Below are positions 1-14,616 of a stretch of DNA of 64,000 nucleotides, piece after piece; position 1 is the first letter of the stretch; each line of letters starts with the position of its first letter. The translations under genes and the position numbers were made by a program. The stretch lies in assembly GCA_947311115.1 (NCBI GenBank), contig CAMZKE010000045.1, forward strand, positions 1,425-65,424. The letters are read 5' to 3'. This DNA is from an uncultured Bacteroidales bacterium (GTDB lineage: Bacteria; Bacteroidota; Bacteroidia; Bacteroidales; JAFGXI01). The notes beneath the pieces are model-generated. The model searched no databases and was not told the origin of the DNA. It saw nothing but the letters and a program-made list of their open reading frames with translations.

Positions 1-830
1 CACGAGTTTATATAAGCTACATTGTCAGTAATACGGCTCTCATAGCCTAAACTCGCACAAATGTAAGCCGAGTTTAACTCTGCGATTAACTCCTCGTAAG
101 CGTACTCTTTTGAGCCAAATATTCCGCTCATATCACGGTTTAAACGGTGTTTTGCTCCGCTCCAATGTCCGAGCTCGTGAAAAGCAATTCCGTAAAAATT
201 AGCATCAGTCTCAAACTGCTTGCGAAGTGGCAAATGTATCTCATCAGTTCCAGGCAGGTAATAAGCCGAATTAATTGCAGAATAATTTATAATTGCTCCG
301 GTACTGTTTATAAGTTGCTCCGCTTGTTCGTTGCGTTCAAATTCTGTAAGTTGTTCAAGTTCCGAGTGCTTGTAATATTCTTGCGGTAAGTTCTCAATTT
401 GCGATATATTAAATACATTATATCCTTTTAAATATCCTCTTTTCTGATAATCAATATGTTCAATAGATAAGCCTTGCTTTAACATTTTTGTAATCATTGG
501 CGTAATATTTTCGCCTGTGTCTGCATCAAGGTATAAATGCGATTTATACACTACCAAAGCCGCCTTACTGCCTTTTTTTATCTTTCCGTTTAACTTGCTC
601 AACTGTTTAAAAGTCATCCACGAGTTATACGCATAAGCGTATTTTGTAGCTAAATATTGTAACATCAGTTGGTTTATACCGCTGTAAATATGATTAGTAT
701 CAGCATTACGAGCAAATATAAAATCATCAGACAATTTATACCAAGCAGAATTATAATTGCTTTGTTTGTGTTTCTCCAATAACTCAATAATTGTATCGGT
801 TATTCTTTCGTATATTTTGTTAGTGTTCAT
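1..830 (-). CDS. ardC: ArdC-like antirestriction protein (ssDNA-binding N-domain plus zincin-like metallopeptidase domain); C-terminus runs off the window
   Basis: Absent from the ORF track because the window edge truncates it. Manual minus-strand translation from ATG 830-828 stays open to base 1: MNTNKIYERITDTIIELLEKHKQSNYNSAWYKL...GIAFHELGHWSGAKHRLNRDMSGIFGSKEYAYEELIAELNSAYICASLGYE. HExxH followed by the RLNR..FG..YA.EEL.AEL block is the ArdC/DUF1738 signature as I remember it. Confidence 0.85.
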   Translation of the reverse strand, partial: MNTNKIYERITDTIIELLEKHKQSNYNSAWYKLSDDFIFARNADTNHIYSGINQLMLQYLATKYAYAYNSWMTFKQLSKLNGKIKKGSKAALVVYKSHLYLDADTGENITPMITKMLKQGLSIEHIDYQKRGYLKGYNVFNISQIENLPQEYYKHSELEQLTEFERNEQAEQLINSTGAIINYSAINSAYYLPGTDEIHLPLRKQFETDANFYGIAFHELGHWSGAKHRLNRDMSGIFGSKEYAYEELIAELNSAYICASLGYESRITDNVAYINS

Positions 831-852: not shown

Positions 853-1080
853 TTATTTGATTTGTTTATTGATTTGCGAAAGCTCCAAATTAAAAGCATC
901 AATTAAATATTGAAGGTCTTTATTTTTGCTTTTCATATACTCCAAAGCTTGTTTAGTATTAGATTTAATTTTGCTTTGTTTTTCCTTGCTTTTGCTCTTT
1001 GTTTTAGTATTCATTTTATCGGTGCAATTAAGACTAAAAGCAGTCCCAAAGCTTGGGACCGCTTTTAATTGGTTAAACAT
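853..1080 (-). CDS. hypothetical small Lys-rich protein, translationally coupled to the upstream ORF
   Basis: 75-aa ORF; its start overlaps the stop of 1080..1580 by 1 nt. Same strand as the ArdC-like gene. No recognisable motif. Confidence 0.4.
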   Translation of the reverse strand: MFNQLKAVPSFGTAFSLNCTDKMNTKTKSKSKEKQSKIKSNTKQALEYMKSKNKDLQYLIDAFNLELSQINKQIK

Positions 1081-1580
1081 TAAAATTTAATTTCTTGCTC
1101 TATTTCTTTAATTTTCTCAATTAAAGTATCTTTAATAGTTGCAATCACCTTTGTAAAAACTTCGGTGTTTGAAGTTTGAAAAACATTTCCGTTTTCATCG
1201 GTTAGTTTAATGTTCTCACCAAACTGCGGAGAGCCAACCACAAAAGCATTTAATTTTTTTCTGCTCTCCTCTAAAATCTCACGTTTTTCAATCAAAATTT
1301 TAAGGTTCTCAACCTTTTCAATTTTCTGTTCAAGTGATAATTCCACAGGTGGCGGAGTTGGAACAGGAGTTTCAACAATCGGTTTTTTAGTTGCCTCAAT
1401 TTTTGGAGTTTGCACACTTGAAGTTTTTTTAACTTCCTCTTTTTTCACTGTCTCGGCTTTGTTTTCTGTGTTCTTGTCTGCCGATTTCTCAACTGCTTTA
1501 TAAGTTGCAGGAGTTAGGTTTTTAAGGTCTTTTTTAAGCCCTAAACCGTTTGAACGTCTTGTTTTTGTTACTGTTGTCAT
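1080..1580 (-). CDS. hypothetical protein: Lys/Pro-rich N-half, structured C-half
   Basis: 166-aa ORF, first gene downstream (minus sense) of the 344-bp palindrome. No recognisable motif. Confidence 0.5.
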   Translation of the reverse strand: MTTVTKTRRSNGLGLKKDLKNLTPATYKAVEKSADKNTENKAETVKKEEVKKTSSVQTPKIEATKKPIVETPVPTPPPVELSLEQKIEKVENLKILIEKREILEESRKKLNAFVVGSPQFGENIKLTDENGNVFQTSNTEVFTKVIATIKDTLIEKIKEIEQEIKF

Positions 1581-1687
1581 AATAAATAAAATTTAAAAAA
1601 TTAATAAAAAAATACTCTGCGAAGACTTTCCCCACAGAAAGAAGTTTATAAATGTTGATAATAGATTTTGAGCGTGCAGTTTAAAAT

Positions 1688-2031
1688 CTATCATTATTTC
1701 TATTTTTTGTTTTTTATACATACCAATTCTATTTTAAAGTTTATAAATGCCTCTTAATGAGTTTATCGCGTTTGTTCAGCCGAGTAAATAGAAAGGCAGA
1801 AATACCGCACAGCAATAGTGATAGTTCTTAGTTTTTGGAGTGTTTAAATATTAACTCGTCGAAGACACCCGAAAACGCTCCGAAGACTTAGAAATATCTA
1901 TTTATATTCTATTGTGTGTGGTATTTTGACTTTCAAACTTTGCTGTACAATACCGAGACTCATTCAGAGGCTTTAACCTTAAAATTACAGTTGGTATAAA
2001 AAACAGAGAAAAAATAGAAATAATGATAGCT
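1688..2031. repeat. 344-bp imperfect palindrome: two ~160-nt arms around a centre at ~1845-1875
   Basis: Hand reverse-complement alignment pairs 1688-1712 (CTATCATTATTTCTATTTTTT...) with 2006-2030 (...AAAAAATAGAAATAATGATAG). Further pairs: 1750-1763 with 1958-1971, 1800-1818 with 1909-1927, 1820-1845 with 1877-1905. Mismatches and bulges occur throughout. Confidence 0.85.
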
Positions 2032-2144: not shown

Positions 2145-2165
2145 AAAAAAGGGGCATAAAGCCCC
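2145..2165 (-). terminator. rho-independent terminator downstream of the 411-aa integrase
   Basis: GGGGC ATAAA GCCCC hairpin (2151-2165), followed on the minus strand by a T-run (A6 at 2145-2150 on plus). Confidence 0.55.
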
Positions 2166-2192
2166 CATCAATAAGTAAAAAAAACTAATTAA

Positions 2193-3428
2193 TTAAACTA
2201 CAAGATTAAATTTATCTTGCAAGTGTTCCATATCTCTTCCAACTTTTTTATCTAAAAGTTTAGCGTATATCTTTGTCATTTTTATTGATGAATGACCGAG
2301 CATTTTTGAAACTGTTTCTATTGGTACATCATTATTCAAAGTTACGGTTGTAGCAAAAGTATGGCGTGCAATATGGGTAGTTAATTTTTTATCTATACCA
2401 CAAATATCTGCAATCTCTTTTAAGTAAGCGTTCATCTTTTGATTTGACATTACCGGTAATAAAACATTTTTTATCTGACAATGAGGATGAAAATGATATT
2501 TCTCAATAATTGCCTCAGTAATTGGTAGCAAAGGTATATGACTACTACCATCGGTTTTAGTTCTGTTTATCATTACCCATTTATTGCCATCAGCTCCTGT
2601 TTTAATGTTTTCTTTGGTTAGCTTTTTTAAATCGGAATGTGCCAAACCGGTAAAACACGAAAACAAAAACATATCTTTTACTATTTCTAAGCGTTCTATT
2701 TTAAACTTTTTATTTATTAATGTATGTAATTCTTCTTCTGATAAAAATGGTCGTTCAGTTTTCTTAACTGTAATTTTAAAATTTACAAATGGGTCTTTTT
2801 TTAGCCAATCATTTGCCATTGCTATTTTTATTATTTTTTTAAAGATAGTTATATACTTCATTGTAGTATTATGAGAGCAATCTTTTTTTGTTTTTAGATA
2901 AATTTCAAATCCTTTAACAAATTTATTGTTCACATCAATAATATTTATGTCTTTTTGTTGATACTCTAATAACATATAATTAATTATATGCTTTAATGTA
3001 GATTTATATTTAGTAACCGTTGATTTTGAATAATCAATACCAATTAGTTTTTCCATTTCTAAATTATGTTCATTGAAAATATCAACCAAACTAACTATTT
3101 CTGTTTCATCTTCAATACCAAGATAAGCATCCTTTAACATTTGTGGTGTAATTTTTTGATTGGTTTCTCTCAAATATTTATAATGCTCATACATTGATGT
3201 TTTAATTGAAAACAAATAATCTGTTAAAGAACGTAATTTTCTTATACCTGTTTGCGGCATAGCTGTTTTTATATCCCATAATTCATAATCTATATCTCTA
3301 TGAACTGTCATATCAGATGTTTTACCACTTATTGTGATACGTAAATAAATTGGAGATTCTCCATTTGCATTTTTTCTGTGCTTCTTTACTATAAAGAGCT
3401 GTTTGAAAGTGTTTCTTTTTTTACTCAT
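2193..3428 (-). CDS. tyrosine-type site-specific integrase (Bacteroidota CTn/NBU-like, with N-terminal arm-binding domain)
   Basis: 411 aa. C-terminal catalytic block HIARHTFATTV...LGHSSIKMTKIYAKL (H-x-x-R ... Y). N-terminus FIVKKHRKNANGESPIYLRITISGK is typical of Bacteroidota integrases. Confidence 0.9.
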   Translation of the reverse strand: MSKKRNTFKQLFIVKKHRKNANGESPIYLRITISGKTSDMTVHRDIDYELWDIKTAMPQTGIRKLRSLTDYLFSIKTSMYEHYKYLRETNQKITPQMLKDAYLGIEDETEIVSLVDIFNEHNLEMEKLIGIDYSKSTVTKYKSTLKHIINYMLLEYQQKDINIIDVNNKFVKGFEIYLKTKKDCSHNTTMKYITIFKKIIKIAMANDWLKKDPFVNFKITVKKTERPFLSEEELHTLINKKFKIERLEIVKDMFLFSCFTGLAHSDLKKLTKENIKTGADGNKWVMINRTKTDGSSHIPLLPITEAIIEKYHFHPHCQIKNVLLPVMSNQKMNAYLKEIADICGIDKKLTTHIARHTFATTVTLNNDVPIETVSKMLGHSSIKMTKIYAKLLDKKVGRDMEHLQDKFNLVV

Positions 3429-3514: not shown

Positions 3515-3556
3515 AAATCGTGTCCACATTTTTCAGTTTGTGCTTGGACACGATTT
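3515..3556. repeat. 12-bp perfect inverted repeat AAATCGTGTCCA / TGGACACGATTT, with a third TGGACAC half-site just downstream
   Basis: Read directly. Lies between the integrase start (3428) and the tRNA-flank terminator. Candidate end or recombinase-binding site of the left-hand element. Confidence 0.5.
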
Positions 3557-3601: not shown

Positions 3602-3640
3602 GGAAAATAAAAAAGCCTGAAAACTCACGTTTTCAGGCTT
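3602..3640 (-). terminator. rho-independent terminator lying (minus sense) just downstream of the displaced tRNA-Asp 3' fragment
   Basis: 11-bp stem AAGCCTGAAAA / TTTTCAGGCTT (3613-3623 with 3630-3640), followed on the minus strand by a T-run. This is the position expected for the original tRNA terminator. Confidence 0.6.
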
Positions 3641-3664
3641 TTACATTATTTTGCTTTGTTAAAA

Positions 3665-3677
3665 GCGGTCTGGACGA
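3665..3677. repeat. attL: 13-bp direct repeat GCGGTCTGGACGA (displaced 3' end of tRNA-Asp)
   Basis: Identical 13-mer at 18211-18223, inside the tRNA-Asp acceptor and T-stem. Confidence 0.75.
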
Positions 3678-3825
3678 TACCCACCATTACACAAATTACA
3701 CAATAAAAATATTTAAAATATTAGTGCGAGGATTGGAAACTCTCAAAGCTAATGATGTGAGCAAGTTAGGGAGTACTTAAATGTATTCCCTGCTTTTATT
3801 ATTTATTAATTTAAAATTGTGTAAG

Positions 3826-4068
3826 ATGAAAACAAAAGAGAGATTAAAAGAGTTTTACGAAAACCTTTATAATGATAGGTACAAAGATATATTAGAGGTT
3901 GTCAAAATTGATGTAGAGGTTATAAACGTGTACATTGTTGCTAAGGTAAAAAAAGATTTTCAATTTATAGAAATAACGCCGTTTAAAGATGCTAAAATAA
4001 TCGGTGTTAATATAGGTACAGGAGTAATAAAATTTATTGAGGATTTAAGAGATGAAAACAATTTATAA
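3826..4068 (+). CDS. hypothetical protein (first gene inside attL)
   Basis: ORF 3781..4068 trimmed to the internal ATG at 3826 (MKTKERLKEFYENLY...). No motif recognised. Confidence 0.4.
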   Translation: MKTKERLKEFYENLYNDRYKDILEVVKIDVEVINVYIVAKVKKDFQFIEITPFKDAKIIGVNIGTGVIKFIEDLRDENNL

Positions 4069-4438
4069 CATACAAGGCGATTTATTTAGTGATGCTGGAG
4101 TTTTGATTTTTAACGATATTGTTTCAAACAAAGAGGTTAATTTAGATTTGTTTAACATTGAATTTGCCAATGATATGGTATATAAATATCAACAGCAATC
4201 AATTATAACCTATTTAACAGGACTAACAGCACAGCAACAAAAAGCCCATACAATAACGATAACAAAAAAGAAAATAGAAATGTTTAATAACATCAACAGT
4301 ATATTAGTTGATAGTTTAAAAAACTTCAATTCTGATAAGATTATTACAGCTATTGGAATGTTATCGGAACTAACAAAAAACAAAACAAGTTTAACAAAGC
4401 TGGCGAAAATTAAAAGCTGGTTAAAAGAAAATTATTAG
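4052..4438 (+). CDS. hypothetical protein
   Basis: 128-aa ORF overlapping the preceding ORF by 17 nt. No motif recognised. Confidence 0.45.
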   Translation: MKTIYNIQGDLFSDAGVLIFNDIVSNKEVNLDLFNIEFANDMVYKYQQQSIITYLTGLTAQQQKAHTITITKKKIEMFNNINSILVDSLKNFNSDKIITAIGMLSELTKNKTSLTKLAKIKSWLKENY

Positions 4439-4459
4439 TAAAAATGTAAGTAACTGAAT

Positions 4460-4500
4460 AACAGCTAAAAGCTGTTTAAAAAGCCCTTACTTGATAATAT
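4460..4500 (+). promoter_or_regulatory. candidate double-strand origin: hairpin AACAGC/GCTGTT followed by CTTGATAATA
   Basis: CTTGATA at 4490-4496, about 40 nt upstream of rep. As I remember it, this heptamer is the nick-site core of pC194/pUB110-type plasmids and phiX174 (CTTG/ATA). Confidence 0.4.
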
Positions 4501-4533
4501 ACGAACTAAGTGGAGATTTTAAAAAGGTAAAAA

Positions 4534-6090
4534 ATGAGTAAAAACTCAAAAAATATAGACGGTAAAAATAATGTTAAGCGAAATTATACTTATAGCAATA
4601 AATTAGCATATAAAAATAAAGAAAATAAGCAAAAAGCACAGGCAATTTATGAATATTGCAAAGAGTGGGGAATAACACTACCAACAACTCGCAAAGAATA
4701 CAAAGAAAATAAAGACCTTGTACTTGCAGACAGAGAAACAGGCTATATTTTAGAGGAGTTTGATATTATCGCACGAGCTTATTACGATTTAAAACAGCCT
4801 ATCAATTCAGTATTAGCAGAGTTTCAAGATGATAACGGCAATAAACGTTATCAATTACTTATGTCGCAATATTCACGTAATAAGATTGATAGTATATGGA
4901 ATTATAAAAAAAGTAAAACGGCACGGCGAGTTTGGATAGAGTATTTAAAAGAACATACCGAACTAATAAAAGACTATGAGCCGAAACATCTAACTTTAAC
5001 CGTACCTCATAAAAACGGAACTTGGCGAGGTCAAGAATTTTTTGCAAAAGAACTTATCAAAGAATTTAACTTAATGCGTAAATCTGATAAGTTTAAACAG
5101 TATATTTATGCAGGTGCGTATAATATTGAAACAACAAAAACCGAAAACGGTAATCATACACACTTACACGCCTTAGTTTTTCAACATAAACAATATACAG
5201 TTAATAAAGTTAGAAAATTGATTGTTAAAGATTGGAACAAACGCACAGGTGCAACGCAGATAAGATATGAAAGTTTATATGTACATCAAAAAGATAACGC
5301 AGGGCGTTGGATAATTGAAACAAAAGAGGAATTATATCACAACGAGCTGGACGCTGACGGTAACGAAATAAAAGTAACACACAAAAACGCATATTCATTT
5401 AGAAAAAAGTTTTATTTAGATAACTCAAACGATTGGTACAGGAATTTAACAGACGTTGAGAAAATAGAGCAAATGAGTATTGGCATACTTGAAACATTAA
5501 AGTATAATTTTAAAGAGGAAGTATTTAAAAACCCTGACGGTACATATAACGTCTCATTTATGCACGAAACCCTTATAAATGGTAAAGGCTTACGTTTTTA
5601 TTCAAAGTTCGGTGCATTTTACGGCGAAAAAAAATTAAATTTAAAACAGGAGTTAGAACGTGATGAGCCTCTAACCGTTGAAAATGAGCAATACGATGAG
5701 AGCCAAGAGGACGACTACAAAACAGACACAAACAACACTATAATAAACACTTATAACCCTTTTACATACGAACACGCAAATTTAAACGAGTGCAAACTTA
5801 AATTAATACAAGTTGATAGATTAAAATTTTTGCGAAAGCCTGAAAAAAAGGAGGTTATTCTCACGCCGAACAAAGAGGATTTAATCGCTATTATAGACGG
5901 TTTAGATTTAAAAAAAATAGCTGAACTTATTGCCAAAGGACAGTTAAACGAAATTATAAAAGAGGAGTTTACAACGGACGATACGTTTACAACTGATGAT
6001 TTAGATGTAGGTAATATTTTGAATAAAGATGAATTTAAAAGTACAAACGATTTTATAAATGCGTTTGAGAATGATTTTTATAATGTTTAA
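4534..6090 (+). CDS. rep: rolling-circle replication initiator, HUH superfamily, Rep_1 (pC194/pUB110)-like motifs, with long acidic C-terminal extension
   Basis: Motif 1 KHLTLTVPHKNG. Motif 2 NHTHLHALVF (HUH). Motif 3 ETLKYNFKEE (catalytic Tyr in YxxK). The C-terminal ~140 aa are D/E/T-rich. Confidence 0.8.
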   Translation: MSKNSKNIDGKNNVKRNYTYSNKLAYKNKENKQKAQAIYEYCKEWGITLPTTRKEYKENKDLVLADRETGYILEEFDIIARAYYDLKQPINSVLAEFQDDNGNKRYQLLMSQYSRNKIDSIWNYKKSKTARRVWIEYLKEHTELIKDYEPKHLTLTVPHKNGTWRGQEFFAKELIKEFNLMRKSDKFKQYIYAGAYNIETTKTENGNHTHLHALVFQHKQYTVNKVRKLIVKDWNKRTGATQIRYESLYVHQKDNAGRWIIETKEELYHNELDADGNEIKVTHKNAYSFRKKFYLDNSNDWYRNLTDVEKIEQMSIGILETLKYNFKEEVFKNPDGTYNVSFMHETLINGKGLRFYSKFGAFYGEKKLNLKQELERDEPLTVENEQYDESQEDDYKTDTNNTIINTYNPFTYEHANLNECKLKLIQVDRLKFLRKPEKKEVILTPNKEDLIAIIDGLDLKKIAELIAKGQLNEIIKEEFTTDDTFTTDDLDVGNILNKDEFKSTNDFINAFENDFYNV

Positions 6091-6105
6091 TTAAAAAGTA
6101 GAAAA

Positions 6106-6438
6106 ATGAAAAGAATTGAAGTAATTGGAAACATCGGCAAAGATGCCGTAATTAAAGATTTTAACGACAAAAAAGCAATAAATTTTAATATTGCCGAAAA
6201 TGAGTATTACACAGATAAAGACGGCAATAAGATTGAAAAAACAAGCTGGTTTAATTGCACACTTTGGAAGTCTGAAAGTCAAAGTATTAAGATAGCGGAA
6301 TACTTAAAAAAAGGCGTTAAAGTGTTTATTGAGGGAACGCCAAAAGCTGATAGTTATATTACTGATAAAGGCGAGAGTGTTGCTTTTATTAATATTCAAG
6401 TTAAAAATATTGAGCTATTATCTAAGGTTGAGAACTAA
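6106..6438 (+). CDS. ssb: single-stranded DNA-binding protein (OB fold) lacking the usual acidic C-terminal tip
   Basis: MKRIEVIGNIGKDAVIK....AINFNIAENE......G...EKTSWFNCTLW...AEYLKKGVKVFIEGTP is the classic SSB OB-fold pattern. The protein ends ...ELLSKVEN, with no D-D-D-I-P-F type tail. Confidence 0.8.
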   Translation: MKRIEVIGNIGKDAVIKDFNDKKAINFNIAENEYYTDKDGNKIEKTSWFNCTLWKSESQSIKIAEYLKKGVKVFIEGTPKADSYITDKGESVAFINIQVKNIELLSKVEN

Positions 6439-6451
6439 CGGGTTGGGGCTA

Positions 6452-6480
6452 TGAAGCGAATCCCCTTATAGTTCGCTTCA
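6452..6480 (+). other. 9-bp stem hairpin TGAAGCGAA / TTCGCTTCA immediately after ssb
   Basis: Read directly. Flanked by repeated TGGGGCT (6444-6450 and 6500-6506) and a second small hairpin GGGCT/AGCCC (6502-6521). Confidence 0.6.
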
Positions 6481-6548
6481 ATTTTACAAATAGGCTTTCT
6501 GGGGCTTTGATTTATTAGCCCTTGTTATAGCCAGTTAATTTTATAAAG

Positions 6549-6830
6549 ATGTTTAAACAAATGAGCGACCAAATCACATTAAAAGAAGCAATTAAACTTA
6601 TAGATTCAAGTTCAGAAACATATAGTTTACATACGGTTATCATAGATGATAATGGAAATAAAATGCCAGTTTATAGTGGTGATTATTTATCAGAATCGCC
6701 AGTAAATACAATAGAAAGTTTTGTTAAAGAAACTGATAATTATGGTTCGTTTTGGCTTAAATTTTACGGTGAAATGGATTTGGTTGTCGCAAAATACCAA
6801 ATAGTTGATGAAAATGGCGAACCTGTTTAA
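6549..6830 (+). CDS. hypothetical protein, bracketed by a 15/16 inverted repeat
   Basis: 93-aa ORF. TGTTATAGCCAGTTAA (6523-6538) and TTAATTGGCTATAACA (6827-6842) are reverse complements with one mismatch. Confidence 0.45.
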   Translation: MFKQMSDQITLKEAIKLIDSSSETYSLHTVIIDDNGNKMPVYSGDYLSESPVNTIESFVKETDNYGSFWLKFYGEMDLVVAKYQIVDENGEPV

Positions 6831-6910
6831 TTGGCTATAACACAAAAGTAACCGCCGTTTGTATGGCGGTTAATGACTGTTAGCGTGCGTTTTAATGCAC
6901 GATTTTCAAA

Positions 6911-7096
6911 ATGTTAATAGTAGTAATAACAATATTATCAATAATTATAGTAATACAGTCTATTGGGCTGTATTACTTAAATTTATCATTTAAAAAACTT
7001 GTAAAGATGGCAAAAAAAGAATGTAAAAATAAAAATGTTGTAAAAGTAAAATCAAAAGTTAAACCTCTTAATAATTATTATATATGGCTCAATTAG
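6911..7096 (+). CDS. small membrane protein (N-terminal TM helix, Lys-rich C-terminus)
   Basis: MLIVVITILSIIIVIQSIGLYYL followed by KKLVKMAKKECKNKNVVKVKSKVK. Confidence 0.4.
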   Translation: MLIVVITILSIIIVIQSIGLYYLNLSFKKLVKMAKKECKNKNVVKVKSKVKPLNNYYIWLN

Positions 7097-7284
7097 AATT
7101 TAAACATACACATTTAACCTTATCGGACGTTGCAGATAGTTACGGTATTAGTATAAGTACATTACACAAGTGGTTAAAGCCAATTAAAAATGATTTGTTA
7201 AAGTTATCAAAAGTAAATACTAAACGTTTAAGAACTTTAAACAGCAAGCAATTAAACAAAATTCAAAATTTTTTATCTGCATAA
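7084..7284 (+). CDS. helix-turn-helix DNA-binding protein (excisionase/regulator-like)
   Basis: LTLSDVADSYGISISTLHKWLKP is a canonical HTH. The gene ends directly before the iteron array. Confidence 0.5.
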   Translation: MAQLEFKHTHLTLSDVADSYGISISTLHKWLKPIKNDLLKLSKVNTKRLRTLNSKQLNKIQNFLSA

Positions 7285-7291
7285 ATAAGAG

Positions 7292-7380
7292 CAATTAACT
7301 ACAATTAACTACAATTAACTACACTTAGCTACACTTAATTATACTTAGCTATACTTAGTAATATTTAGTGATATGCTTAA
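7292..7380. repeat. about nine tandem 10-bp iterons (CAATTAACTA x3, then CACTTAGCTA-type variants)
   Basis: Read directly: caattaacta caattaacta caattaacta cacttagcta cacttaatta tacttagcta tacttagtaa tatttagtga. The 10-bp period matches the helical repeat. Confidence 0.8.
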
Positions 7381-7405
7381 ATTTTCATAGTTGTATTATT
7401 GCAAC

Positions 7406-7930
7406 GTGAAAAAGAAAATTATAATATATTCAATTATTGCCGTGCTGGTAGTACTTGCTTTTTTTGGTATCAAAAAAGCAAAAAAAATGCTTGCGTTAAA
7501 AAAAGCAAAAGTAAACGTATTAGATTTTCAGTTGTTAGATAATATCGGCGTTAAAACATTAAACACAGGATTTAATACAAAAGTAGATTTAAAATTACAA
7601 AACTATTCGCCGAACACTTACCAATTAGAGCAATTACAAGTTGATTTATATACTCCGTCTGGTCAATTATTAGCAGAACAACAACAACCAATTAAACCAA
7701 CGGAAATAAAACCAAACGCTAATACAACCGTTTCTATTAATCATTATATCAAAAGTGAAAAGTTTTTAGACTTGCTATCTGAAAATGATTATATAGATAA
7801 AAAAGAAACTGTTTTAGAAATAGCAATGAAATTATTATCAATGGATTTAAGCGGTGTTAATTTAACAATAAAAGGTTTTGCAATTATTGACGGTCTGGAA
7901 ATACCAATAAATGAAAATATATCTTTATAA
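7406..7930 (+). CDS. membrane-anchored beta-rich protein, possibly LEA_2/NDR1-like fold
   Basis: Track ORF 7391..7930 (TTG) trimmed to GTG 7406 (MKKKIIIYSIIAVLVVLAFFGI). VDLKLQNYSPNTYQLEQLQVDLYTPSGQLLAE resembles the LEA_2 pattern from memory. Weak. Confidence 0.45.
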   Translation: MKKKIIIYSIIAVLVVLAFFGIKKAKKMLALKKAKVNVLDFQLLDNIGVKTLNTGFNTKVDLKLQNYSPNTYQLEQLQVDLYTPSGQLLAEQQQPIKPTEIKPNANTTVSINHYIKSEKFLDLLSENDYIDKKETVLEIAMKLLSMDLSGVNLTIKGFAIIDGLEIPINENISL

Positions 7931-10011
7931 TGTTAGAAAATTTAAACATAGAGAAACCAAAATATATTGACGGTATAGTAAAGTATAATGCCACATTAGA
8001 GGACACCTTAAAACTTGTTTCTTTGATTAGTTCAAGAGATAGTTATCAAGTTAAAGGATTAGCCGAAAAGTTAAAAGCTGGTACAGTAGAGCAAACAGCA
8101 CATAATATTTGGAATTTCTTAAAATCAAACATACCATATAAAGAGGACACACGAGGAACGGAACAAGTAAGAACGCCAGCACGAGTTATTGAGGACGCAA
8201 AAAATGGCATTGGCGTTGATTGTGATTGTATGACTACCTTAGTGAGTGCAATTTTAAAGGAATTAAACATTAAACATTATTACAAGGTTGTAGCTTGGCA
8301 GGGCGATAATTACGCACATATATATCCTGTTGCTATTGACAATAACGGCAATGAATACGCTATTGACGGAATACCTGAAATAATACAATTTAATGTTGAG
8401 TTACCGTATTCATCTGAATTAAAATTTAATCAAAATTATTATAAAATGGATTTACAAGAATTAAACGGCACAGTTGCAGAACTTGAAGAAAAGCAAATTG
8501 CTGACGACTTTTTTAATACGGAGTTAAGCGGTGCAAATACTGATGAGGATAGCGAGGAAAGTTTAGATAAATACTATTCTGAAAATTATCACGCTTTAAT
8601 GGGTAATTATATTGTTGTTGATGATGAGCAAGACGCTGAATTTATTTTAGCTGGTGCTGATTTTTTTGAGGGCATATTTTACAAACAAACGCAATTATTA
8701 CTATCAAATTTGCGTAAAGAAAAAGAAAACCCTACTTTTTTAAGTAAATATCAAAACACAGAAAAAGAAATTGCCATTGCTGAAACTGTTTTGGTGAATT
8801 GGAAAGAAGATATTTTGCCAGCAATTTTAACAGAGGCGATACAGGATAGTGATAAATACAAAGATTTTTATATCGAACTTCGCAAAGGTATAACCGAATA
8901 TACAAGAAATAACGAGTTAAACGGTGTTGAGGACTTTGATATTTATTTAAAAGCTATCGGCGAGGACGAATTAAACGAATTGGAGTTAAATGGCTCATTA
9001 GACGGTTGGTTTAAAAAGGCTTGGAATAAAGTTAAAACAGGCTTAAAAAAAGCTGGTAAAAAGGTTAAAAACGGACTTTTAAAAGTTGGGCGTAAACTTC
9101 ATAGAGTCGCAATGTTCCCTGCACGAGCAACGGTATTTCCTATATTGCGAGCTGGTGGCGGTATATTATTTTTAGCACGATACGCAAACCCTGCTGACTT
9201 AAAAAAGTCTGCTAAGTTAAGAGAAAAGAAACGCCGTGCTGATTTTATAGTACACAAACTTGTTAGAGTTTTAGGGTATAATTTATCAAAGTTTGATAAC
9301 CTTGTTAAAGCTGGTATAAAAACAGCTTTTGGTGGCGTTGATAAAGCCTTTGCAAGATTAAAAAGAGGTAAACAGTTATACGGTACAGAACTTAACGGCG
9401 AATTAGGATTTTGGGCAACAGCCGCAAGTGCTGTAATAGGTTTAATTGGTAAACTTTGGAAGTTTATACAAAAGATTTTCAAAAAGAAACCAAAAGACCC
9501 AAAATTAACGGCTGGTGATTTTGCAAACGGTAGTACTGCAAACAATAACGCTGGTAATGATAACAACGATAATGCTGGTAATGATGATTACGCTGGTAAC
9601 GATTACAACGATAATGCTGGTAACAATTCAAAAAGTACAAGAATGAGTACATCAAATACAAAAGAAGAGGGCGGAAAAACTAAAAACGCATCAATAGTTG
9701 CTAAAGCTAAAGAGTTTACGAAAAAACATAAAACTACTTTAATAATAGTATCTATTGTTATTGTGTTGTTGATTGTAGGTTTTGTTTTTTGGAAAAAAAG
9801 CCACAGCAAGCCGAAAAAACGCAGAAGTGTAAACGGTAGGCAAAAAGCCTTAAACGGAACAAGAGTTGTAACGAGTACAAGCGTTAAAACTATTGACACA
9901 GGAAAGCGTTTAAAACAAATGCACCGTATTGCAAAAAGAATGAGAAAACAATATCCGAACGCTAAATACTCCACTTTGTTAAAAAAAGCAAGTAAAGAGC
10001 TTAAAAAGTAG
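7930..10011 (+). CDS. large transglutaminase-like cysteine peptidase domain protein with amphipathic Lys-rich region, N/D/G low-complexity repeats and C-terminal TM
   Basis: Cys-His-Asp core pattern GVDCDCMTTLVSAIL...NYAHIYPVAID...YAIDG. Residues ~350-520 are Lys-rich amphipathic helices. NDNAGND repeats occur at 9540-9625. TM segment TTLIIVSIVIVLLIVGFVFW. TAATG coupling with the previous ORF. Confidence 0.6.
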   Translation: MLENLNIEKPKYIDGIVKYNATLEDTLKLVSLISSRDSYQVKGLAEKLKAGTVEQTAHNIWNFLKSNIPYKEDTRGTEQVRTPARVIEDAKNGIGVDCDCMTTLVSAILKELNIKHYYKVVAWQGDNYAHIYPVAIDNNGNEYAIDGIPEIIQFNVELPYSSELKFNQNYYKMDLQELNGTVAELEEKQIADDFFNTELSGANTDEDSEESLDKYYSENYHALMGNYIVVDDEQDAEFILAGADFFEGIFYKQTQLLLSNLRKEKENPTFLSKYQNTEKEIAIAETVLVNWKEDILPAILTEAIQDSDKYKDFYIELRKGITEYTRNNELNGVEDFDIYLKAIGEDELNELELNGSLDGWFKKAWNKVKTGLKKAGKKVKNGLLKVGRKLHRVAMFPARATVFPILRAGGGILFLARYANPADLKKSAKLREKKRRADFIVHKLVRVLGYNLSKFDNLVKAGIKTAFGGVDKAFARLKRGKQLYGTELNGELGFWATAASAVIGLIGKLWKFIQKIFKKKPKDPKLTAGDFANGSTANNNAGNDNNDNAGNDDYAGNDYNDNAGNNSKSTRMSTSNTKEEGGKTKNASIVAKAKEFTKKHKTTLIIVSIVIVLLIVGFVFWKKSHSKPKKRRSVNGRQKALNGTRVVTSTSVKTIDTGKRLKQMHRIAKRMRKQYPNAKYSTLLKKASKELKK

Positions 10012-10072
10012 ATTTATAGCGATTTGAGATAATTTAAAAAGTATTATTTATAAACCTTAAATATTTTTAAAA

Positions 10073-10813
10073 ATGGACGAGAATTTTAACAATTCAGAGC
10101 TAACAGAAGAAGAAATTGTTTTAGCTGGAATGGGCGGAAATGATGAAGATTTTACCGCAGAGGAAAACGAAAAAGATTTAGTTTTAGACGGAGATTTAGG
10201 ACGTTGGGGACGTAGAAGATACTCGCCAAAACGTTACAGACGTGTAAGAGTTGCTTCTATTGGTAAAAATACCGCCGCAAGTTTATTCAGAAAACAAGCC
10301 TTAGAACGTGTTTCTAAAATGTCGCCTGATGTTCAAAAGAAACTTATCAAAGGACAGGCTCAAATTTCTGATATGGTATATTATGCTTGTGGCGAACTTG
10401 CCGGACGTTCAGTTGATTTAGTTGATGAGAGTGTAAACCGTACACTTGGCGTTACTAACCTTGACGGTGGTAAGATTGACAAAGACAAAGAATTTGTTTT
10501 ATCGGCTGTTAAGTTTGCTTGGGACGATAACTCTTTAAAAGGTGCGTATGCAGACCCTATCCCTGCCGAAGTTATTAACGGTGAGTTTGAATTGCAGTTA
10601 AACGGTAAAAAAGTTATTGACAATATGCCAATGGCAATATTTACTGACGGTGTGAATGGTTACAATGTAAACAAGCCTTATGCTTATTACGTTTTAAACA
10701 ACCCTAAGCATATCAAACCGCAGACTACTATTGAGTTGGAAGTAAAAACAGCCTATAATGTAAATGGTTTCTTAAAAGTTTACTTAATCGGTACATCGGT
10801 TAAACCTTTTTAA
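10073..10813 (+). CDS. candidate major capsid protein: acidic leader, Arg-rich arm, beta-rich C-domain
   Basis: RWGRRRYSPKRYRRVRV arm, then a strand-rich C-half ending TIELEVKTAYNVNGFLKVYLIGTSVKPF. A strong terminator hairpin follows. The functional call is inference only. Confidence 0.35.
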   Translation: MDENFNNSELTEEEIVLAGMGGNDEDFTAEENEKDLVLDGDLGRWGRRRYSPKRYRRVRVASIGKNTAASLFRKQALERVSKMSPDVQKKLIKGQAQISDMVYYACGELAGRSVDLVDESVNRTLGVTNLDGGKIDKDKEFVLSAVKFAWDDNSLKGAYADPIPAEVINGEFELQLNGKKVIDNMPMAIFTDGVNGYNVNKPYAYYVLNNPKHIKPQTTIELEVKTAYNVNGFLKVYLIGTSVKPF

Positions 10814-10837
10814 CACACACAATTTTTATTAATAATT

Positions 10838-10880
10838 AAAGCGTACAGGTAATAGTTGTACGCTTTTAATTAATTTTTTT
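10838..10880 (+). terminator. rho-independent terminator after the candidate capsid gene
   Basis: 10-bp stem AAAGCGTACA / TGTACGCTTT (10838-10847 with 10857-10866), followed by a T-rich run. Confidence 0.6.
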
Positions 10881-10898
10881 AACTTAAAATTTTAACAA

Positions 10899-11123
10899 AT
10901 GGCAATTTCAAAAAGGGCACAAATGGCGTTAAATGCTGTTAATTCATTTGACGAAGTGGACGCAAAAGATTTTAGTAATGCAATAACTTTTGGTAACAAA
11001 TATTTTAAAGTACGCCAATTTATAGCCACAGGCTTAAAAAAAGCTGAAAAAACAGAAAGTACAGAAAGTACAGAAAGTACAGAAAGTACAGAAAGTACAG
11101 AGGGTACAAGTGATAAATTGTAA
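10899..11123 (+). CDS. hypothetical protein with (TES)n tandem repeat
   Basis: 74-aa ORF; C-terminus is KTESTESTESTESTESTEGTSDKL. Confidence 0.45.
   Translation: MAISKRAQMALNAVNSFDEVDAKDFSNAITFGNKYFKVRQFIATGLKKAEKTESTESTESTESTESTEGTSDKL
11052..11105 (+). repeat. 9-bp tandem repeat ACAGAAAGT x5 plus one variant, in frame inside the 74-aa ORF
   Basis: Read directly. Confidence 0.9.
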
Positions 11124-11134
11124 AACAATAAGTA

Positions 11135-11473
11135 ATGCAAAAAATTCAAGCTATAAAAGTTGAGATACCAAACGGACAAGATACAATTACTGTTACTGAT
11201 GATTTAACAGTTGGTTATTCAAAGTTTACAGGTGTTGCCGTTGTCAATAGTCAAGCTGGTAACGATGTTTTAAAATCTGTAATGTTTGACGGCAAAGAAC
11301 TTTTGCCGAAAAATACAGAGGTTGCACTTATACAATCTACAACAAATGTTATTCCTGATGAGAGGTTTTTTTCTGTAAACGAAAAAAATCAAAACTCATC
11401 AATAGAATTAACAATAAAAGCAAGTAATACAGCAGGGCGTGCATATAACGTTTATTTAAGATTAGAAAAATAA
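11135..11473 (+). CDS. small beta-rich protein (candidate capsid or vertex component)
   Basis: 112 aa. The ending SSIELTIKASNTAGRAYNVYLRLEK parallels the C-terminus of the 246-aa protein. Confidence 0.35.
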   Translation: MQKIQAIKVEIPNGQDTITVTDDLTVGYSKFTGVAVVNSQAGNDVLKSVMFDGKELLPKNTEVALIQSTTNVIPDERFFSVNEKNQNSSIELTIKASNTAGRAYNVYLRLEK

Positions 11474-11475
11474 CG

Positions 11476-11802
11476 ATGTTACACAAAGTTAATGCAAGTA
11501 TAACAGGGCGTTTAATACCATTTAGAACGGAGTACAAACCTAAACGTAAAGAATTGTTAAAAGGTGTGTATTTCCCTAATTATAATAATTTAGTTAAGAG
11601 AAAAGCAACGTTAAGTATATTTATCAATAATGAAATAGTTATTGATGAAATGCACCCTGTTGATATTCATACTTCATTAAATAAACGTTTACGTGTTATT
11701 GATAGAATAATCAATGAGCCTGTTACTGTTATTTTTAAAGCTGATAGTGAAAAAACATTTTTTGTATCCTGTTATTTAGAAACACAAGTAATTGATGAGT
11801 AA
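11476..11802 (+). CDS. small beta-rich protein (candidate structural)
   Basis: 108 aa. The ending VTVIFKADSEKTFFVSCYLETQ repeats the same pattern more loosely. Confidence 0.3.
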   Translation: MLHKVNASITGRLIPFRTEYKPKRKELLKGVYFPNYNNLVKRKATLSIFINNEIVIDEMHPVDIHTSLNKRLRVIDRIINEPVTVIFKADSEKTFFVSCYLETQVIDE

Positions 11803-12136
11803 ATTAACCGAACATATTATTTTAAACGACCTAAAAAAACGAGGTATAACAAATTATACAATTAAAGAATATAATTTGATACGTCCAGACTTTATTAAGG
11901 TTGGTAAACGAGAGTTGATTTATTTACATTTATTTGAGGCAAGAACAAAAGAAAAAGGTTTTGATGTATTGTTATATTCTGATGAGGATAAAATATTGTA
12001 CACGCAAGAAAATACAGTAAAAACATTAGAAGTATATACAAGTAATATTCTAACAGTTTTTGAGAGTGATATTCGCTCGATAATAAAGGCTAAACCTGAA
12101 ACTTATTTTATTCAATTTTACAAAGTAACCTATTAA
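11792..12136 (+). CDS. hypothetical protein
   Basis: 114-aa ORF overlapping the previous ORF by 11 nt. No motif. Confidence 0.4.
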   Translation: MMSKLTEHIILNDLKKRGITNYTIKEYNLIRPDFIKVGKRELIYLHLFEARTKEKGFDVLLYSDEDKILYTQENTVKTLEVYTSNILTVFESDIRSIIKAKPETYFIQFYKVTY

Positions 12137-12147
12137 CACAAAAAGCA

Positions 12148-13104
12148 ATGAGTAAGAAAAGAATAATACAAGCCGAAAGCGATGAACAAATAAAAAATTT
12201 TGTTTCAACTTATAAATATTGGGCAATATTAGACGGTAGCGATGAGCTGGCAAATTCTAATATTGAGAATGTAGATTTTGAAAAAGAATTAATAAAAGCT
12301 ATTGATGTAGGTATTAAGAGAGGGCGACAATATTTAGTTATTCGTGTTGGAAGTAATGAGTATAATAGTCGTACCAATGATGAAATGGTAATAAGTTTAT
12401 CTAATTATACAAATCCAATTACAGAACAATACGCACCAAACACACAACCAAACGCACCAATTATTTTAAGTGGTCTTAACAAGCCGTTAAATAATACAGG
12501 CATAACAGCAACGGAAATGCAAACTTATTTAAACGGTGCATTAGAAAGGCAACAAAAGGAATTTGAGGCAATGAATAAAAGTACCCTTGCAGGCTTGCAG
12601 GCTGAAATGAAAAAACAGCAAGCTGAACAGGAAATTGCACTTTTAAAGCAAATGCACGAGCAACAAATGAATTTTGAACGCCAATTATTACAGCGTGAAC
12701 GTGAGGAGTTAGAACGTAAACAACGAGAGCTGGAAGTGGAACGAGAGGAGTTTGAATTTGAAAAACAAGAAAACAAAGAGGGTATAAAAGGATTTGTTTC
12801 AACACTTGCAGGCTTTGGACGTGATTTAGTGGACGATGTTTTGCCAAAAAAAGATAAAGAAGATACTGAGCTAAAAGGAACTGAAAATATTGACACTTCA
12901 AATGTTGATAATACAGAAACTTTACAATTTGAGGACACGGAAACAAACGATAACAACGAGGCAGATATAATTTTAGACGGCATAGAAAAAATGAGCAAAG
13001 AGGATTTGCAAGTTATACAGGAACTACTTGCCGAAAAATTAAAAGATAACAACACAGAAAAAAACAAAGAATTTACTAACGATAAAACGCAAGAAAATGA
13101 ATAA
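12148..13104 (+). CDS. coiled-coil, E/Q/K-rich protein with acidic tail (scaffold-like)
   Basis: Central QQKEFEAMNK...LQREREELERKQRELEVEREEFEFEKQE heptad-like stretch. D/E/T/N-rich C-terminus. Confidence 0.5.
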   Translation: MSKKRIIQAESDEQIKNFVSTYKYWAILDGSDELANSNIENVDFEKELIKAIDVGIKRGRQYLVIRVGSNEYNSRTNDEMVISLSNYTNPITEQYAPNTQPNAPIILSGLNKPLNNTGITATEMQTYLNGALERQQKEFEAMNKSTLAGLQAEMKKQQAEQEIALLKQMHEQQMNFERQLLQREREELERKQRELEVEREEFEFEKQENKEGIKGFVSTLAGFGRDLVDDVLPKKDKEDTELKGTENIDTSNVDNTETLQFEDTETNDNNEADIILDGIEKMSKEDLQVIQELLAEKLKDNNTEKNKEFTNDKTQENE

Positions 13105-13396
13105 GTATAATATTGAAGTAAGAGTAAACGATAACGGTAAAATAAAGAGCTTACATATAGATATGCAAGCGGAAAGTTTAACACACTTAGCAAGCGAAAT
13201 ACAAGGCTTGCAACAATTAAACAAAACTCTTTCGCACGATGATTTTATGCAAGCAAAAGAATTGATTATACAAAAACCGCAGTTAGTAACTACTATTAAA
13301 GAGGTTATTAACGAAACCGAAGATTTAAGCGAAACTCAAATGCTGATGAAAGCCCCGAGTTTAATTCGTAGATTTATTAAAGTATTAAAAGATTAG
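13097..13396 (+). CDS. hypothetical protein
   Basis: 99-aa ORF overlapping the previous ORF by 8 nt (ATGAATAA). Confidence 0.4.
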   Translation: MNKYNIEVRVNDNGKIKSLHIDMQAESLTHLASEIQGLQQLNKTLSHDDFMQAKELIIQKPQLVTTIKEVINETEDLSETQMLMKAPSLIRRFIKVLKD

Positions 13397-13400
13397 AAAA

Positions 13401-13835
13401 ATGAACCCTAAATTATTAGCCTTAGCCAGCAATTTAGATGTAAATAAGATAATAAAATACGTTATTATCCTTATTGTTGTTTTAATTGCAATTCGTTACA
13501 TTAAAAAGTATGTTAAAAAACATAAAAACGAGCAAGTAGTAGCCAATTTAGAGCAAGATATAAAGGTAAACAAATTATCTTATCCTTTATCTTATTATCC
13601 ATTATGGGCAGATGAGCTTTTTAAGGCAATGGACGGTATGGGAACTAATGAAGATGTTGTTTTTAAAATCTTTGGAAAACTTAAAACAAAAGATGATGTA
13701 TTGCAGTTAATTACAGCTTTTGGAGTGAAAAAAGAGGAAACATTAACGCAATGGCTTGTTGATGATTTAAGTGATGATGATAGAAACGCACTTAATCGTT
13801 TAATGAGTGATAAAAATATAAATTATCAGTTTTAA
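13401..13835 (+). CDS. membrane-anchored protein with a single annexin-type repeat
   Basis: TM segment IIKYVIILIVVLIAIRYI. Then WADELFKAMDGMGTNEDVVFKIFGKLKTKDDVLQLITAF matches the annexin repeat consensus A..L.KAM.G.GT.E..LI.I...R.......I as I remember it. Confidence 0.55.
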   Translation: MNPKLLALASNLDVNKIIKYVIILIVVLIAIRYIKKYVKKHKNEQVVANLEQDIKVNKLSYPLSYYPLWADELFKAMDGMGTNEDVVFKIFGKLKTKDDVLQLITAFGVKKEETLTQWLVDDLSDDDRNALNRLMSDKNINYQF

Positions 13836-13921
13836 ATGAAAAAGAAAAAAATACAAGTGTTTACCTATGTTGTAGGTGTTGATATTGTAGGACAACCTTT
13901 GATTGTAAAACATTATGTATA

Positions 13922-14410
13922 ATGAAAATAACAAAGAAAACATATACATTAATAGCAATATTATTAGTTGTTATAGTTTTATTTGTTATCATAACTCGTA
14001 AGAAAATGGCAGAGATAAAAGAATGTAGTTTTTTTGACACAAAAGAATTTGATAGCCCAGATGTTCAAGGAAGTGGCAAGAATATGCAACACACAACATT
14101 ATTAATGCTTTGTGAGGCTCGTAAAATTGCAAATGTACCGTTTAAAATAAATAGCGGTTTTAGAACTATTGAACACAATGCAAAAGTTGGCGGTGTTGTT
14201 AATTCAGCTCACACGAGAGGCTATGCAATAGATATAAGCACGCCAAACGGACACAATCAAAAATTAATTGTTAAGGCTTTAAGACAAGCAGGATTTAAAC
14301 GCTTTGGAATTTATACAAATTTTATTCACGCCGATAACGACCCTATAAAAAAACAGTTTGCATATTGGGGAACAGCAAAGGAACGTTTTAACCCTTTTCA
14401 TTTAGCATAA
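13922..14410 (+). CDS. peptidase M15A-type cell-wall hydrolase with N-terminal signal anchor (endolysin candidate)
   Basis: TM segment TYTLIAILLVVIVLFVIIT. Then INSGFRTIEHNAKVGGVVNSAHTRGYAIDIS...FIHADND (the H..D...H zinc-site pattern of Peptidase_M15_3). Confidence 0.75.
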   Translation: MKITKKTYTLIAILLVVIVLFVIITRKKMAEIKECSFFDTKEFDSPDVQGSGKNMQHTTLLMLCEARKIANVPFKINSGFRTIEHNAKVGGVVNSAHTRGYAIDISTPNGHNQKLIVKALRQAGFKRFGIYTNFIHADNDPIKKQFAYWGTAKERFNPFHLA

Positions 14411-14616
14411 TGATAATGAATAATGTTAAAACATATATAGCGGTGGTATTGTACTTTATTAACGAAAATATGAGTATTGATAATATATTGAGTTTATCTA
14501 TTGCAGTATTTACAGTTATATACTTATTGCTGGGTATTGTTTTAAAATTTAGAAAAGTTATTGAAAATGACTGCAAAACAAAGAAAAATATTAATAATAA
14601 TTTTAGTGATAATTAG
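14410..14616 (+). CDS. small two-TM membrane protein (holin or membrane-protein candidate)
   Basis: TAATG coupling to the M15 gene. Two hydrophobic segments: TYIAVVLYFI and LSLSIAVFTVIYLLLGIVL. Confidence 0.4.
   Translation: MIMNNVKTYIAVVLYFINENMSIDNILSLSIAVFTVIYLLLGIVLKFRKVIENDCKTKKNINNNFSDN

Follow-up and report, generated by a model that had tools for sequence, protein, structure and literature searches.

In integrative elements of Bacteroidota, a long imperfect hairpin is fixed in position and orientation before a gene cassette that ends in an ArdC-like antirestriction gene, and it has been shaped by selection to fold on the template strand of this operon. We describe it from the window, by which we mean the whole 64,000-nucleotide stretch analysed here, and from its counterparts in related loci. 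Our tentative proposal is that it serves as a promoter or priming signal in its single-stranded DNA (ssDNA) form, similar to the Frpo and sso elements, because it folds on the template strand, keeps a fixed place before an anti-restriction cassette and is linked to a rolling-circle family with a nick motif on the same strand. The features of the region, from the left edge of the window, are:

1-830, minus strand: ArdC-like antirestriction gene with ArdcN and zincin metallopeptidase domains, cut by the window edge
853-1080, minus strand: ORF75, the second cassette gene, overlapping the ORF166 stop; 46-50 aa in relatives
1080-1580, minus strand: ORF166, the first cassette gene, with a disordered N-terminal half and a conserved C-terminal 90 aa
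1651-1689, plus strand: conserved block ATGCAGATAATAGATTT(T)GAGCGGnGTTCA bearing the stem-loop SL2, between the operon and the hairpin base
1688-2031, plus strand: long imperfect hairpin, with a 5' arm at about 1688-1852, a short variable apex at about 1853-1872 and a 3' arm at about 1873-2031
1820-1831, plus strand: 5'-arm core GATAGTTCTTAG, pairing with 1887-1898, with conserved T.T and G.A mismatches; nearly invariant in the alignment
1887-1906, plus strand: 3'-arm core CTTAGAAATATC, followed by the bulged A/T-rich TATTTATAT
1912-1942, plus strand: promoter-like boxes, TTG at 1912-1914 (in duplex), then 20 nt, then AAACTTTG at 1935-1942 (in an internal loop opposite 1781-1790)
2150-2166, minus strand: intrinsic terminator of int1, insulating the hairpin and cassette against read-through
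2193-3428, minus strand: tyrosine integrase int1, 411 aa, with Arm-DNA-binding, SAM-like and catalytic domains
3665-3677, plus strand: 13-bp copy of the tRNA-Asp 3' end, GCGGTCTGGACGA, at the junction of element B (left) and element A (right)

Only five inverted repeats in the 64 kb have arms of 30 nt or longer within 700 nt. The one at 1688-2031 is the longest, and no other is as large. A repeat search found its arms at 1688-1743 and 1974-2029 (56 nt, 80% complementary) together with nested inner arms, and the ssDNA fold of 1680-2040 is a single continuous, imperfect hairpin of 344 nt, running from 1688 to 2031. The original prediction had called for both strands to be folded as ssDNA. The plus strand reaches -76.9 kcal/mol, compared with -26.9 +/- 3.8 kcal/mol in dinucleotide shuffles (z -13.2; 0 of 100 shuffles as good), and the minus strand reaches -69.0 kcal/mol (z -12.1). 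These values confirm the 344-nt structure that had been placed directly upstream of an ArdC-like operon. Wider limits of 1561-2162, obtained by lenient local alignment, were rejected as an AT-rich over-extension, the flanks being unpaired in the MFE fold. Next to the hairpin base, 1663-1669 pairs with 1683-1689 to form the small stem-loop SL2.

The operon itself was also predicted correctly, as three co-oriented, coupled ORFs of which the last is ArdC-like: they are ORF166, ORF75 and the ArdC gene that begins at 830. The ArdC-like protein matches PF08401 (ArdcN, 7e-24) and PF18818 (zincin peptidase, 8e-35), and HELGH, an HExxH sequence, is present in its translation. The gene is accordingly classed as encoding a predicted protein of the ArdC type, with an ssDNA-binding ArdcN domain and a C-terminal zincin metallopeptidase carrying HExxH. 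ArdC homologues are found in dsDNA tailed phages too. ORF166 has more than 200 homologues in Bacteroidales, Marinilabiliales and other Bacteroidota MAGs, none with an assigned name, and its predicted fold has no match in the PDB. Exact-protein look-up of ORF75 and ORF166 of the window gave no record, and a comparison of the cassette proteins with PADLOC and NCBIfam gave no informative match. ORF166, the small ORF of 46-50 aa and ArdC recur together, with 26 ArdC ORFs in 25 loci. The gene that usually follows the cassette encodes a 108-aa protein, c2 (18 loci).

To follow the hairpin in relatives, 31 distinct loci from different Bacteroidota MAGs were fetched via ORF166 homologues. Contigs with hairpin-bearing loci include JBBIRU010000024.1, DAOQYW010000017.1 and CAYTWH010000017.1. 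As the original prediction anticipated for related elements, analogous structures exist: of the 31 loci with an ORF166 homologue, 29 carry a homologous hairpin at the corresponding position, ahead of the cassette of ORF166, small ORF and ArdC. The relatives' hairpins measure 270-900 nt and end 60-110 nt ahead of the ORF166 start. Among loci with enough upstream sequence the exception is L021, which has no long hairpin and is missing ArdC as well. The far side of the hairpin varies, being occupied by an integrase, a host aconitase gene or defence genes, and the hairpin is kept regardless. It also persists in short remnants whose ArdC seems split or truncated.

Within the hairpin, conservation follows the secondary structure. 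The basal stem of ~150 bp is constant in length across loci, and the apex is free to vary between 44 and 372 nt. A nearly invariant core frames the apex on the plus strand, in the order GATAGTCCTTAG, apex, CTTAGGAATATCTATTTAT. The conserved bulge (TATTTATAT) is a site of insertion, with an extra branch of 27-76 nt in five loci. Each locus has a single copy of the core 16-mer, in every case antisense to ORF166, and the remainder of the 689 kb of fetched DNA has none. RNAalifold analysis of 12 native sequences gave 86 pairs, 45 of them with compensatory double changes. In this 12-sequence alignment 92.7% of cells are paired, compared with 81.3% in shuffles (0 of 500 shuffles as high); cells changed on both sides number 131, compared with 47; and covariation is 0.393, compared with 0.185. 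Sliding the partners by 1-3 columns lowers the paired share to 41-52%. With 25 non-redundant loci and the apex trimmed, compensation is seen in 46 of 93 consensus pairs. Such compensatory changes and covariation across loci exclude an inert inverted duplication. The hairpins constitute a deeply diverged family with strong covariation and a clear strand signature. The hairpin region 1600-2180 has no blastn match (word 11) among 72,556 plasmids and 50,697 phages, and an exact 16-mer scan of IMG/VR gave 90 matches, all due to chance.

The strand signature comes from the mismatches in the stem. Folding was performed with G.T pairs forbidden, which treats the strands alike, and isolated 1x1 mismatches were counted, each type being compared with the complementary type that the minus strand would carry. 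On the plus strand there are 35 G.T mismatches versus 3 A.C, 74 A.G versus 11 C.T, 55 T.T versus 7 A.A, and 12 G.G versus 0 C.C. For G.T versus A.C, 18 loci favour G.T and 1 favours A.C (binomial p = 7e-8, a value that overstates independence because the loci are related). The mismatch types enriched on the plus strand are the more stable ones in nearest-neighbour data. The plus strand also gives the better fold in 25 of 25 loci, with a mean advantage of 8.1 kcal/mol. Taken together, the mismatch asymmetry and the folding energies indicate that the functional single strand is the plus strand of the window. This strand serves as the template for ORF166, ORF75 and ArdC, and its sense matches that of the Rep, SSB and structural genes of the carrier family. 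The original prediction of a single-strand promoter or initiation element is therefore borne out in one respect, since the selected strand is the operon template as such an element requires, and is less certain in another, since the consensus score of the promoter boxes is no better than chance.

These boxes lie in the 3' arm. The TTG and TT.GC.G.ACA columns are invariant in the alignment, and the arrangement TTG-N20-nAnnTT(T/C)G is conserved in position. The nAnnTT(T/C)G box belongs to a conserved internal loop that sits directly above the invariant stem GTTCTGC/GCAGA.AC, and an A/T-rich bulge lies upstream. In the folded plus strand, the TTG/AAACTTTG layout is directed towards the base of the hairpin and the operon. 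On the other strand, the mirror position is without such boxes, and that arm (s3) has the lowest promoter score. TTG-N20-AAACTTTG resembles the -33/-7 boxes of Bacteroidota promoters, as a partial match only: the first T of the -7-like box is usually missing, and the box reads TTCG in 9 of 25 loci. The best TTTG-N17-23-TAnnTTTG score in the relevant arm averages 8.16/10, compared with 7.64 in shuffled sequence, which is not above chance. Of the -33 TTTG/-7 TAnnTTTG duplex for which a search was originally suggested, the conserved TTG-N20-nAnnTT(T/C)G is present, while the consensus score, at 8/10, does not rise above shuffles. Because of this score, the initiation site and the promoter mechanism are what we infer rather than what we observe.

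In the mechanism that we tentatively favour, the single-stranded molecule would be DNA rather than RNA. The plus strand would arise in single-stranded form at cell entry or as the strand displaced during rolling-circle replication. In this form, 1688-2031 would snap back to a duplex of ~160 bp, which could stay free of SSB and recruit the host transcription or priming machinery. RNA polymerase might start inside the stem at TTG-N20-nAnnTTTG, with the -7-like box held in the internal loop. RNA synthesis would then exit the hairpin base with the plus strand as template, producing an mRNA for ORF166, ORF75 and ArdC before the complementary strand is made, and the same mRNA could prime synthesis of that strand too. 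Conversion to dsDNA would abolish the hairpin and silence the cassette. The stem speaks against this reading in one way, in that no canonical Bacteroidota promoter is convincingly rebuilt in it.

The main rival reading, which we consider unlikely, is that the plus strand instead encodes a structured non-coding RNA, antisense to the ArdC operon, which would act as a cis-antisense regulator or as an independent RNA. The excess of G.U, G.A and U.U over A.C, C.U and A.A suits RNA as well as DNA. RNA families typically show the kind of covariation, conserved internal loops and variable apical and bulge expansions found here, and to that extent the loops and length-variable insertions count against an ssDNA promoter. 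Immediately 5' of the hairpin, the plus strand carries a conserved TAGATTT(T)G that is similar to a -7 box (TAnnTTTG). This sequence is one arm of SL2, however. Its T run covaries with the A run of the other arm, and through this covariation the window, L001, L005 and L006 lose the TAnnTTTG register; we therefore rejected it as a -7 box. A -33 box at the proper distance is missing, as is a conserved plus-strand terminator past the hairpin. The Rfam 15 covariance models gave no credible match to the hairpin even at E <= 1, only chance-level matches with E of 0.15-0.66. Among the isolated mismatches, G.T (35) is rarer than A.G (74) and T.T (55), which would be unusual in an RNA helix. In addition, the hairpin was never found without the cassette in searches that went through ORF166 only.

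The original prediction placed the hairpin in the leading region of a Bacteroidota integrative and conjugative element. This setting finds no support in the gene neighbourhood: no relaxase, coupling protein, T4SS or oriT-type gene is found within 10 kb in any of the 31 loci, and a conjugative leading region was rejected on these grounds. The neighbours are instead a tyrosine integrase and a phage-like module with an endolysin, a holin and a jelly-roll capsid-like protein. A co-oriented integrase lies directly upstream of the hairpin and cassette in 13 loci (the window and 12 others). Upstream neighbours other than integrase include the host aconitase gene in L003 and a WYL protein with a methylase in L006.

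In the window, a second GCGGTCTGGACGA copy is found at 18211-18223, inside the tRNA-Asp gene at 18211-18285. The 14.5-kb stretch between the two copies is element A. The GCGGTCTGGACGA junction therefore assigns the hairpin, its ArdC cassette and int1 to a second element, B. The two elements are integrated in tandem at tRNA-Asp, with B running off the left window edge. Element A encodes an HUH rolling-circle Rep (4534-6090) with the motifs HLTLTVP, HTHLHALVF and LKYNFK and a weak match to Rep_1, and an SSB at 6106-6438. An HUH Rep could in principle double as a relaxase. Element A also encodes a 693-aa protein with a transglutaminase-like domain, an M15 endolysin, a holin-like protein, a PIN/Phd toxin-antitoxin pair and several conserved proteins without assigned function, and its second integrase, int2, adjoins tRNA-Asp. 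The sequence CTTGATAATA, a nick sequence of the pC194/phiX type, occurs on the plus strand 38 nt upstream of the element A rep. Its location on this strand predicts displacement of the strand that runs antisense to the int/ArdC side.

Five hairpin-bearing loci link the cassette to element A. In L009, L010, L012, L031 and L032, the cassette is followed by an opposite-strand module with a glucosaminidase, a peptidoglycan-binding protein, RadC, c6, c7, c5 and c33. The c6, c7, c5 and c33 families are homologous to, and collinear with, element A genes of unassigned function, and the hairpin-bearing elements and element A therefore form one family. The cassette is missing from element A, the L037 contig (13.1 kb, no terminal overlap), L039 and L040-L055, and it is an accessory module of the carrier family. 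Rep, SSB and the nick motif were seen only in the hairpin-less relatives element A and L037; in the fetched hairpin-bearing loci, the replication module lies beyond the stretch covered. A metagenome scan with a c33 alignment returned only relatives without the cassette, and hence no link between the hairpin and a type of Rep.

The carrier looks like an integrative phage-like element of ~14 kb (13-15 kb class), judging from its gene content. The protein c33 (246 aa) is predicted (pLDDT 70.9) to combine a beta jelly-roll-like domain with an N-terminal arm that is basic and disordered. The best PDB match of the predicted structure is the SPV1 capsid protein (E 1e-4, TM 0.51), and further matches include the SH1 and PBCV-1 capsid proteins and the coat proteins of geminiviruses and luteoviruses. 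Matches in BFVD include CRESS-virus capsids, all with low TM. A 318-aa protein was also considered as a capsid candidate and was ruled out by its coiled-coil richness and acidic tail. No packaging ATPase was found among the larger ORFs with Pfam and PHROGs. The carrier is small, has lysis genes and a single gene orientation, and encodes c33 with its jelly-roll match; these traits argue that it is virus-like, and it is probably a small tailless temperate virus. Packaging of ssDNA stays a proposal because a VapE-like primase gene lies near the structural module in one relative. The Rep and structural proteins have no detectable similarity to those of cultured phages, and tblastn searches of phages and plasmids gave no match with ORF166, Rep or the 318-aa protein as query. 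The carrier family is absent from INPHARED, PLSDB and IMG/VR (scanned in the last case with ORF166, c5 and c33).

A rolling-circle family raises the question of whether the hairpin is simply the sso of its element, priming the complementary strand, with its proximity to ArdC incidental. We consider this improbable. In its size and imperfect palindrome the hairpin is similar to ssoA, ssoU and the f1 minus-strand origin, and it is located on the predicted displaced strand, as marked by CTTGATAATA upstream of the rep of the neighbouring element A. The SL2 loop, GAGCG(G/T), presumably resembles the CS-6 motif of ssoA, TAGCGT. Frpo itself reportedly primes DNA synthesis in vitro, as the title of Masai & Arai 1997, a reference in PMC9849209, has it. 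Relatives with the same Rep are nevertheless without the hairpin, which disfavours a pure sso: element A, L037 and L039 share the structural genes (A and L037 also Rep and SSB) and none of them carries it. An essential origin would not be restricted to an accessory cassette. The survival of the hairpin in short remnants in which ArdC is apparently truncated or split also counts against this reading.

A role at the level of dsDNA or sense RNA, such as a recombination or cruciform site, a repressor operator, a structured 5' leader or an insulator against integrase read-through, is the least probable of all and very unlikely: the hairpin does lie between the integrase terminator and the operon, and the leader in the window has a terminator-like hairpin (1615-1639, minus strand), but such a role predicts no selection on folding of the antisense strand, which all 25 loci favour, the leader terminator is not conserved in other loci, compensatory changes over ~90 pairs are unexpected for a protein operator, and an attP or recombination site was rejected with the att repeat located on the opposite side of int, beyond it and not at the hairpin.

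The proposed ssDNA promoter would extend a mechanism with a narrow known distribution. Single-strand promoters are known from a few closely related sequences on proteobacterial conjugative plasmids, and large-scale searches for them relied on sequence similarity or on the sigma-70 consensus (PMC11541004). Bacteroidota are not mentioned in that survey (Nature 2024), and no paper joining ssDNA promoters with Bacteroidota was among the top-ranked papers of our literature search. The hairpin is deeply diverged, covarying and strand-marked, and it would therefore offer an independent, evolution-based definition of the requirements of a single-strand promoter. What is new here is the hairpin family, the host phylum with its different promoter type and the virus-like carrier. 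The expression of anti-defence genes from an entering single strand would reach another phylum and probably a virus-like element. In addition, an integrative element family missing from current virus catalogues is flagged.

A more far-reaching reading sees the carriers as a hitherto unrecognised virus family of Bacteroidota, temperate, small (13-15 kb), replicating by rolling circle and packaging the plus strand, and the hairpin as their phylum-specific single-strand promoter. We regard this combination as doubtful. If it were true, the antisense anti-restriction cassette would be transcribed from virion ssDNA before any restriction-sensitive dsDNA exists, and a Frpo-like mechanism would be known for the first time from a phage and from a host whose promoters are not of the sigma-70 type.

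The closest parallels to the hairpin are found on conjugative plasmids. Frpo stem-loops form in the transferred strand, where they recruit RNA polymerase to drive the leading genes, and conversion to dsDNA turns them off (PMC9849209, PMC11541004). Similar to the Frpo/ssi elements of F, ColIb-P9 and related conjugative plasmids, the hairpin is an imperfect stem-loop of one DNA strand on the scale of ~300 nt, and it is located just upstream of early anti-defence or establishment genes that are templated by the folding strand. The Frpo/ssi elements have an unpaired region at a -10-like box, and the hairpin has one at its -7-like box. For both, conversion to dsDNA is predicted to act as an off-switch. 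The differences are substantial. The hairpin has no sequence similarity to any plasmid searched, and its apex is free in length (44-372 nt). Its hosts are Bacteroidota, in which sigma reads -33/-7 rather than -35/-10 boxes, and these are partly present. Its carrier bears an integrase, is phage-like and belongs to a family with rolling-circle replicons, in contrast to an oriT-adjacent leading region.

Rolling-circle replicons and filamentous phages provide two further parallels. The sso elements (ssoA, ssoU, ssoT and ssoW, and sso1 of ICEBs1) form long imperfect palindromes whose activity is restricted to the displaced strand and to one orientation. They are recognised by RNA polymerase as single-strand promoters and are associated with HUH Rep replicons. 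The hairpin shares with them the long imperfect palindrome and the association with an HUH Rep family, and under the proposed mechanism it would also share their dependence on strand and orientation and their recognition by RNA polymerase. It differs in being tied to an accessory anti-restriction cassette rather than to the replication module and in being missing from relatives with the same Rep, and RS-B and CS-6 are not demonstrated in it. In the Ff phages (f1/M13), the minus-strand origin is a hairpin of the packaged strand that mimics a promoter and is used by host RNA polymerase immediately after entry, and the hairpin would correspond to it in these respects. The Ff origin yields only a short primer and drives no gene, whereas the hairpin described here has a three- to four-gene operon downstream on its template.

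For the carrier, the nearest described class is that of the FLiP-related phages. These rolling-circle ssDNA phages and prophages of Bacteroidetes have genomes of up to 17 kb (PMC5894146). The carrier resembles them in its host phylum, its 13-15 kb size class, its rolling-circle Rep, its absent packaging ATPase, its lysis genes and its integrated copies. It differs in that its capsid candidate, c33, appears to have a single rather than a double jelly roll. With respect to the hairpin, neither homology nor genomic setting makes it a member of the Frpo/ssi elements; as far as can be judged from its sequence, it would work in the same way as Frpo, ssi and sso.

In the relatives, the hairpin upstream of the ORF166/ORF75/ArdC cassette has been enlarged by insertions that are themselves self-complementary (L003, 9242-9855; L009; L014-L016, L023 and L029). 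Those at the apex reach 372 nt; those at the conserved bulge, an A/T-rich site in the 3' arm, form branches of 27-76 nt. The basal 150 bp of the hairpin is constant in length.

The cassette itself varies. L023, L027, L030, L031 and L036 keep the hairpin and ORF166, the first cassette gene, and seem to have an ArdC gene that is cut short or split, or none at all; these loci look like decaying remnants. The ORF166 homologue at L021 10001-10456 is the only one found with neither a downstream ArdC gene nor an upstream hairpin core, the nearly invariant sequence that frames the apex. Multiple copies can coexist, with four in one MAG (Marinilabiliales BM703) and two on contig DAOQYW010000017.1. In L001, the closest long relative, the ArdC cassette is directly followed by a complete type I restriction-modification system (3686-10665), which consists of HsdM, a DUF1016 protein, HsdS and a 1000-aa protein of HsdR size.

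Two minus-strand features lie at or near the base of the hairpin in the window:
1615-1639, minus strand: stem resembling a terminator, TTCTGTGGGGAAAGTCTTCGCAGAG and then a T-run, located in the leader that separates the hairpin from the start of ORF166
1593-1721, minus strand: 42-aa ORF overlapping the hairpin base

The other loci do not conserve the terminator-like stem. The 42-aa ORF is unlikely to be a gene. Its equivalent is sometimes joined to ORF166 by gene callers, which gives N-terminal extensions (P0059, P0107), and the shared 'KKQK...QNLLS' reflects a conserved DNA block.

Small repeats accompany both integrases:
3516-3556 and 3611-3642: two repeat features between int1, the integrase of the hairpin-bearing element, and the att repeat
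18048-18061 and 18130-18143: 14-bp arms of an inverted repeat without mismatches, CTTAGATTTTCGCA / TGCGAAAATCTAAG, separated by a 68-nt spacer

One feature of the int1-att interval is an inverted repeat of 12 bp (AAATCGTGTCCA...TGGACACGATTT); the other is a bidirectional terminator-like hairpin with a 14-bp stem. The 14-bp repeat, located between int2, the integrase of the neighbouring element A, and tRNA-Asp, folds as ssDNA with a z of about -4 and may be a binding region for an integrase or excisionase.

Element A comprises:
3665-18223: integrated element of 14.5 kb, flanked by direct repeats that copy 13 bp of the tRNA-Asp 3' end
replication genes: HUH Rep, accompanied by a nick-type motif (CTTGATAATA, 4490-4499), and SSB
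10073-10813: 246-aa jelly-roll-like protein
693-aa protein: DUF553
other genes: M15 endolysin, holin-like protein, PIN/Phd pair, integrase

Its Rep and a 318-aa protein have no match in INPHARED, the family of its 246-aa protein has none in IMG/VR, and its PHROGs matches are confined to the SSB, endolysin and integrase. Element A probably represents a small temperate virus family, so far unrecognised.
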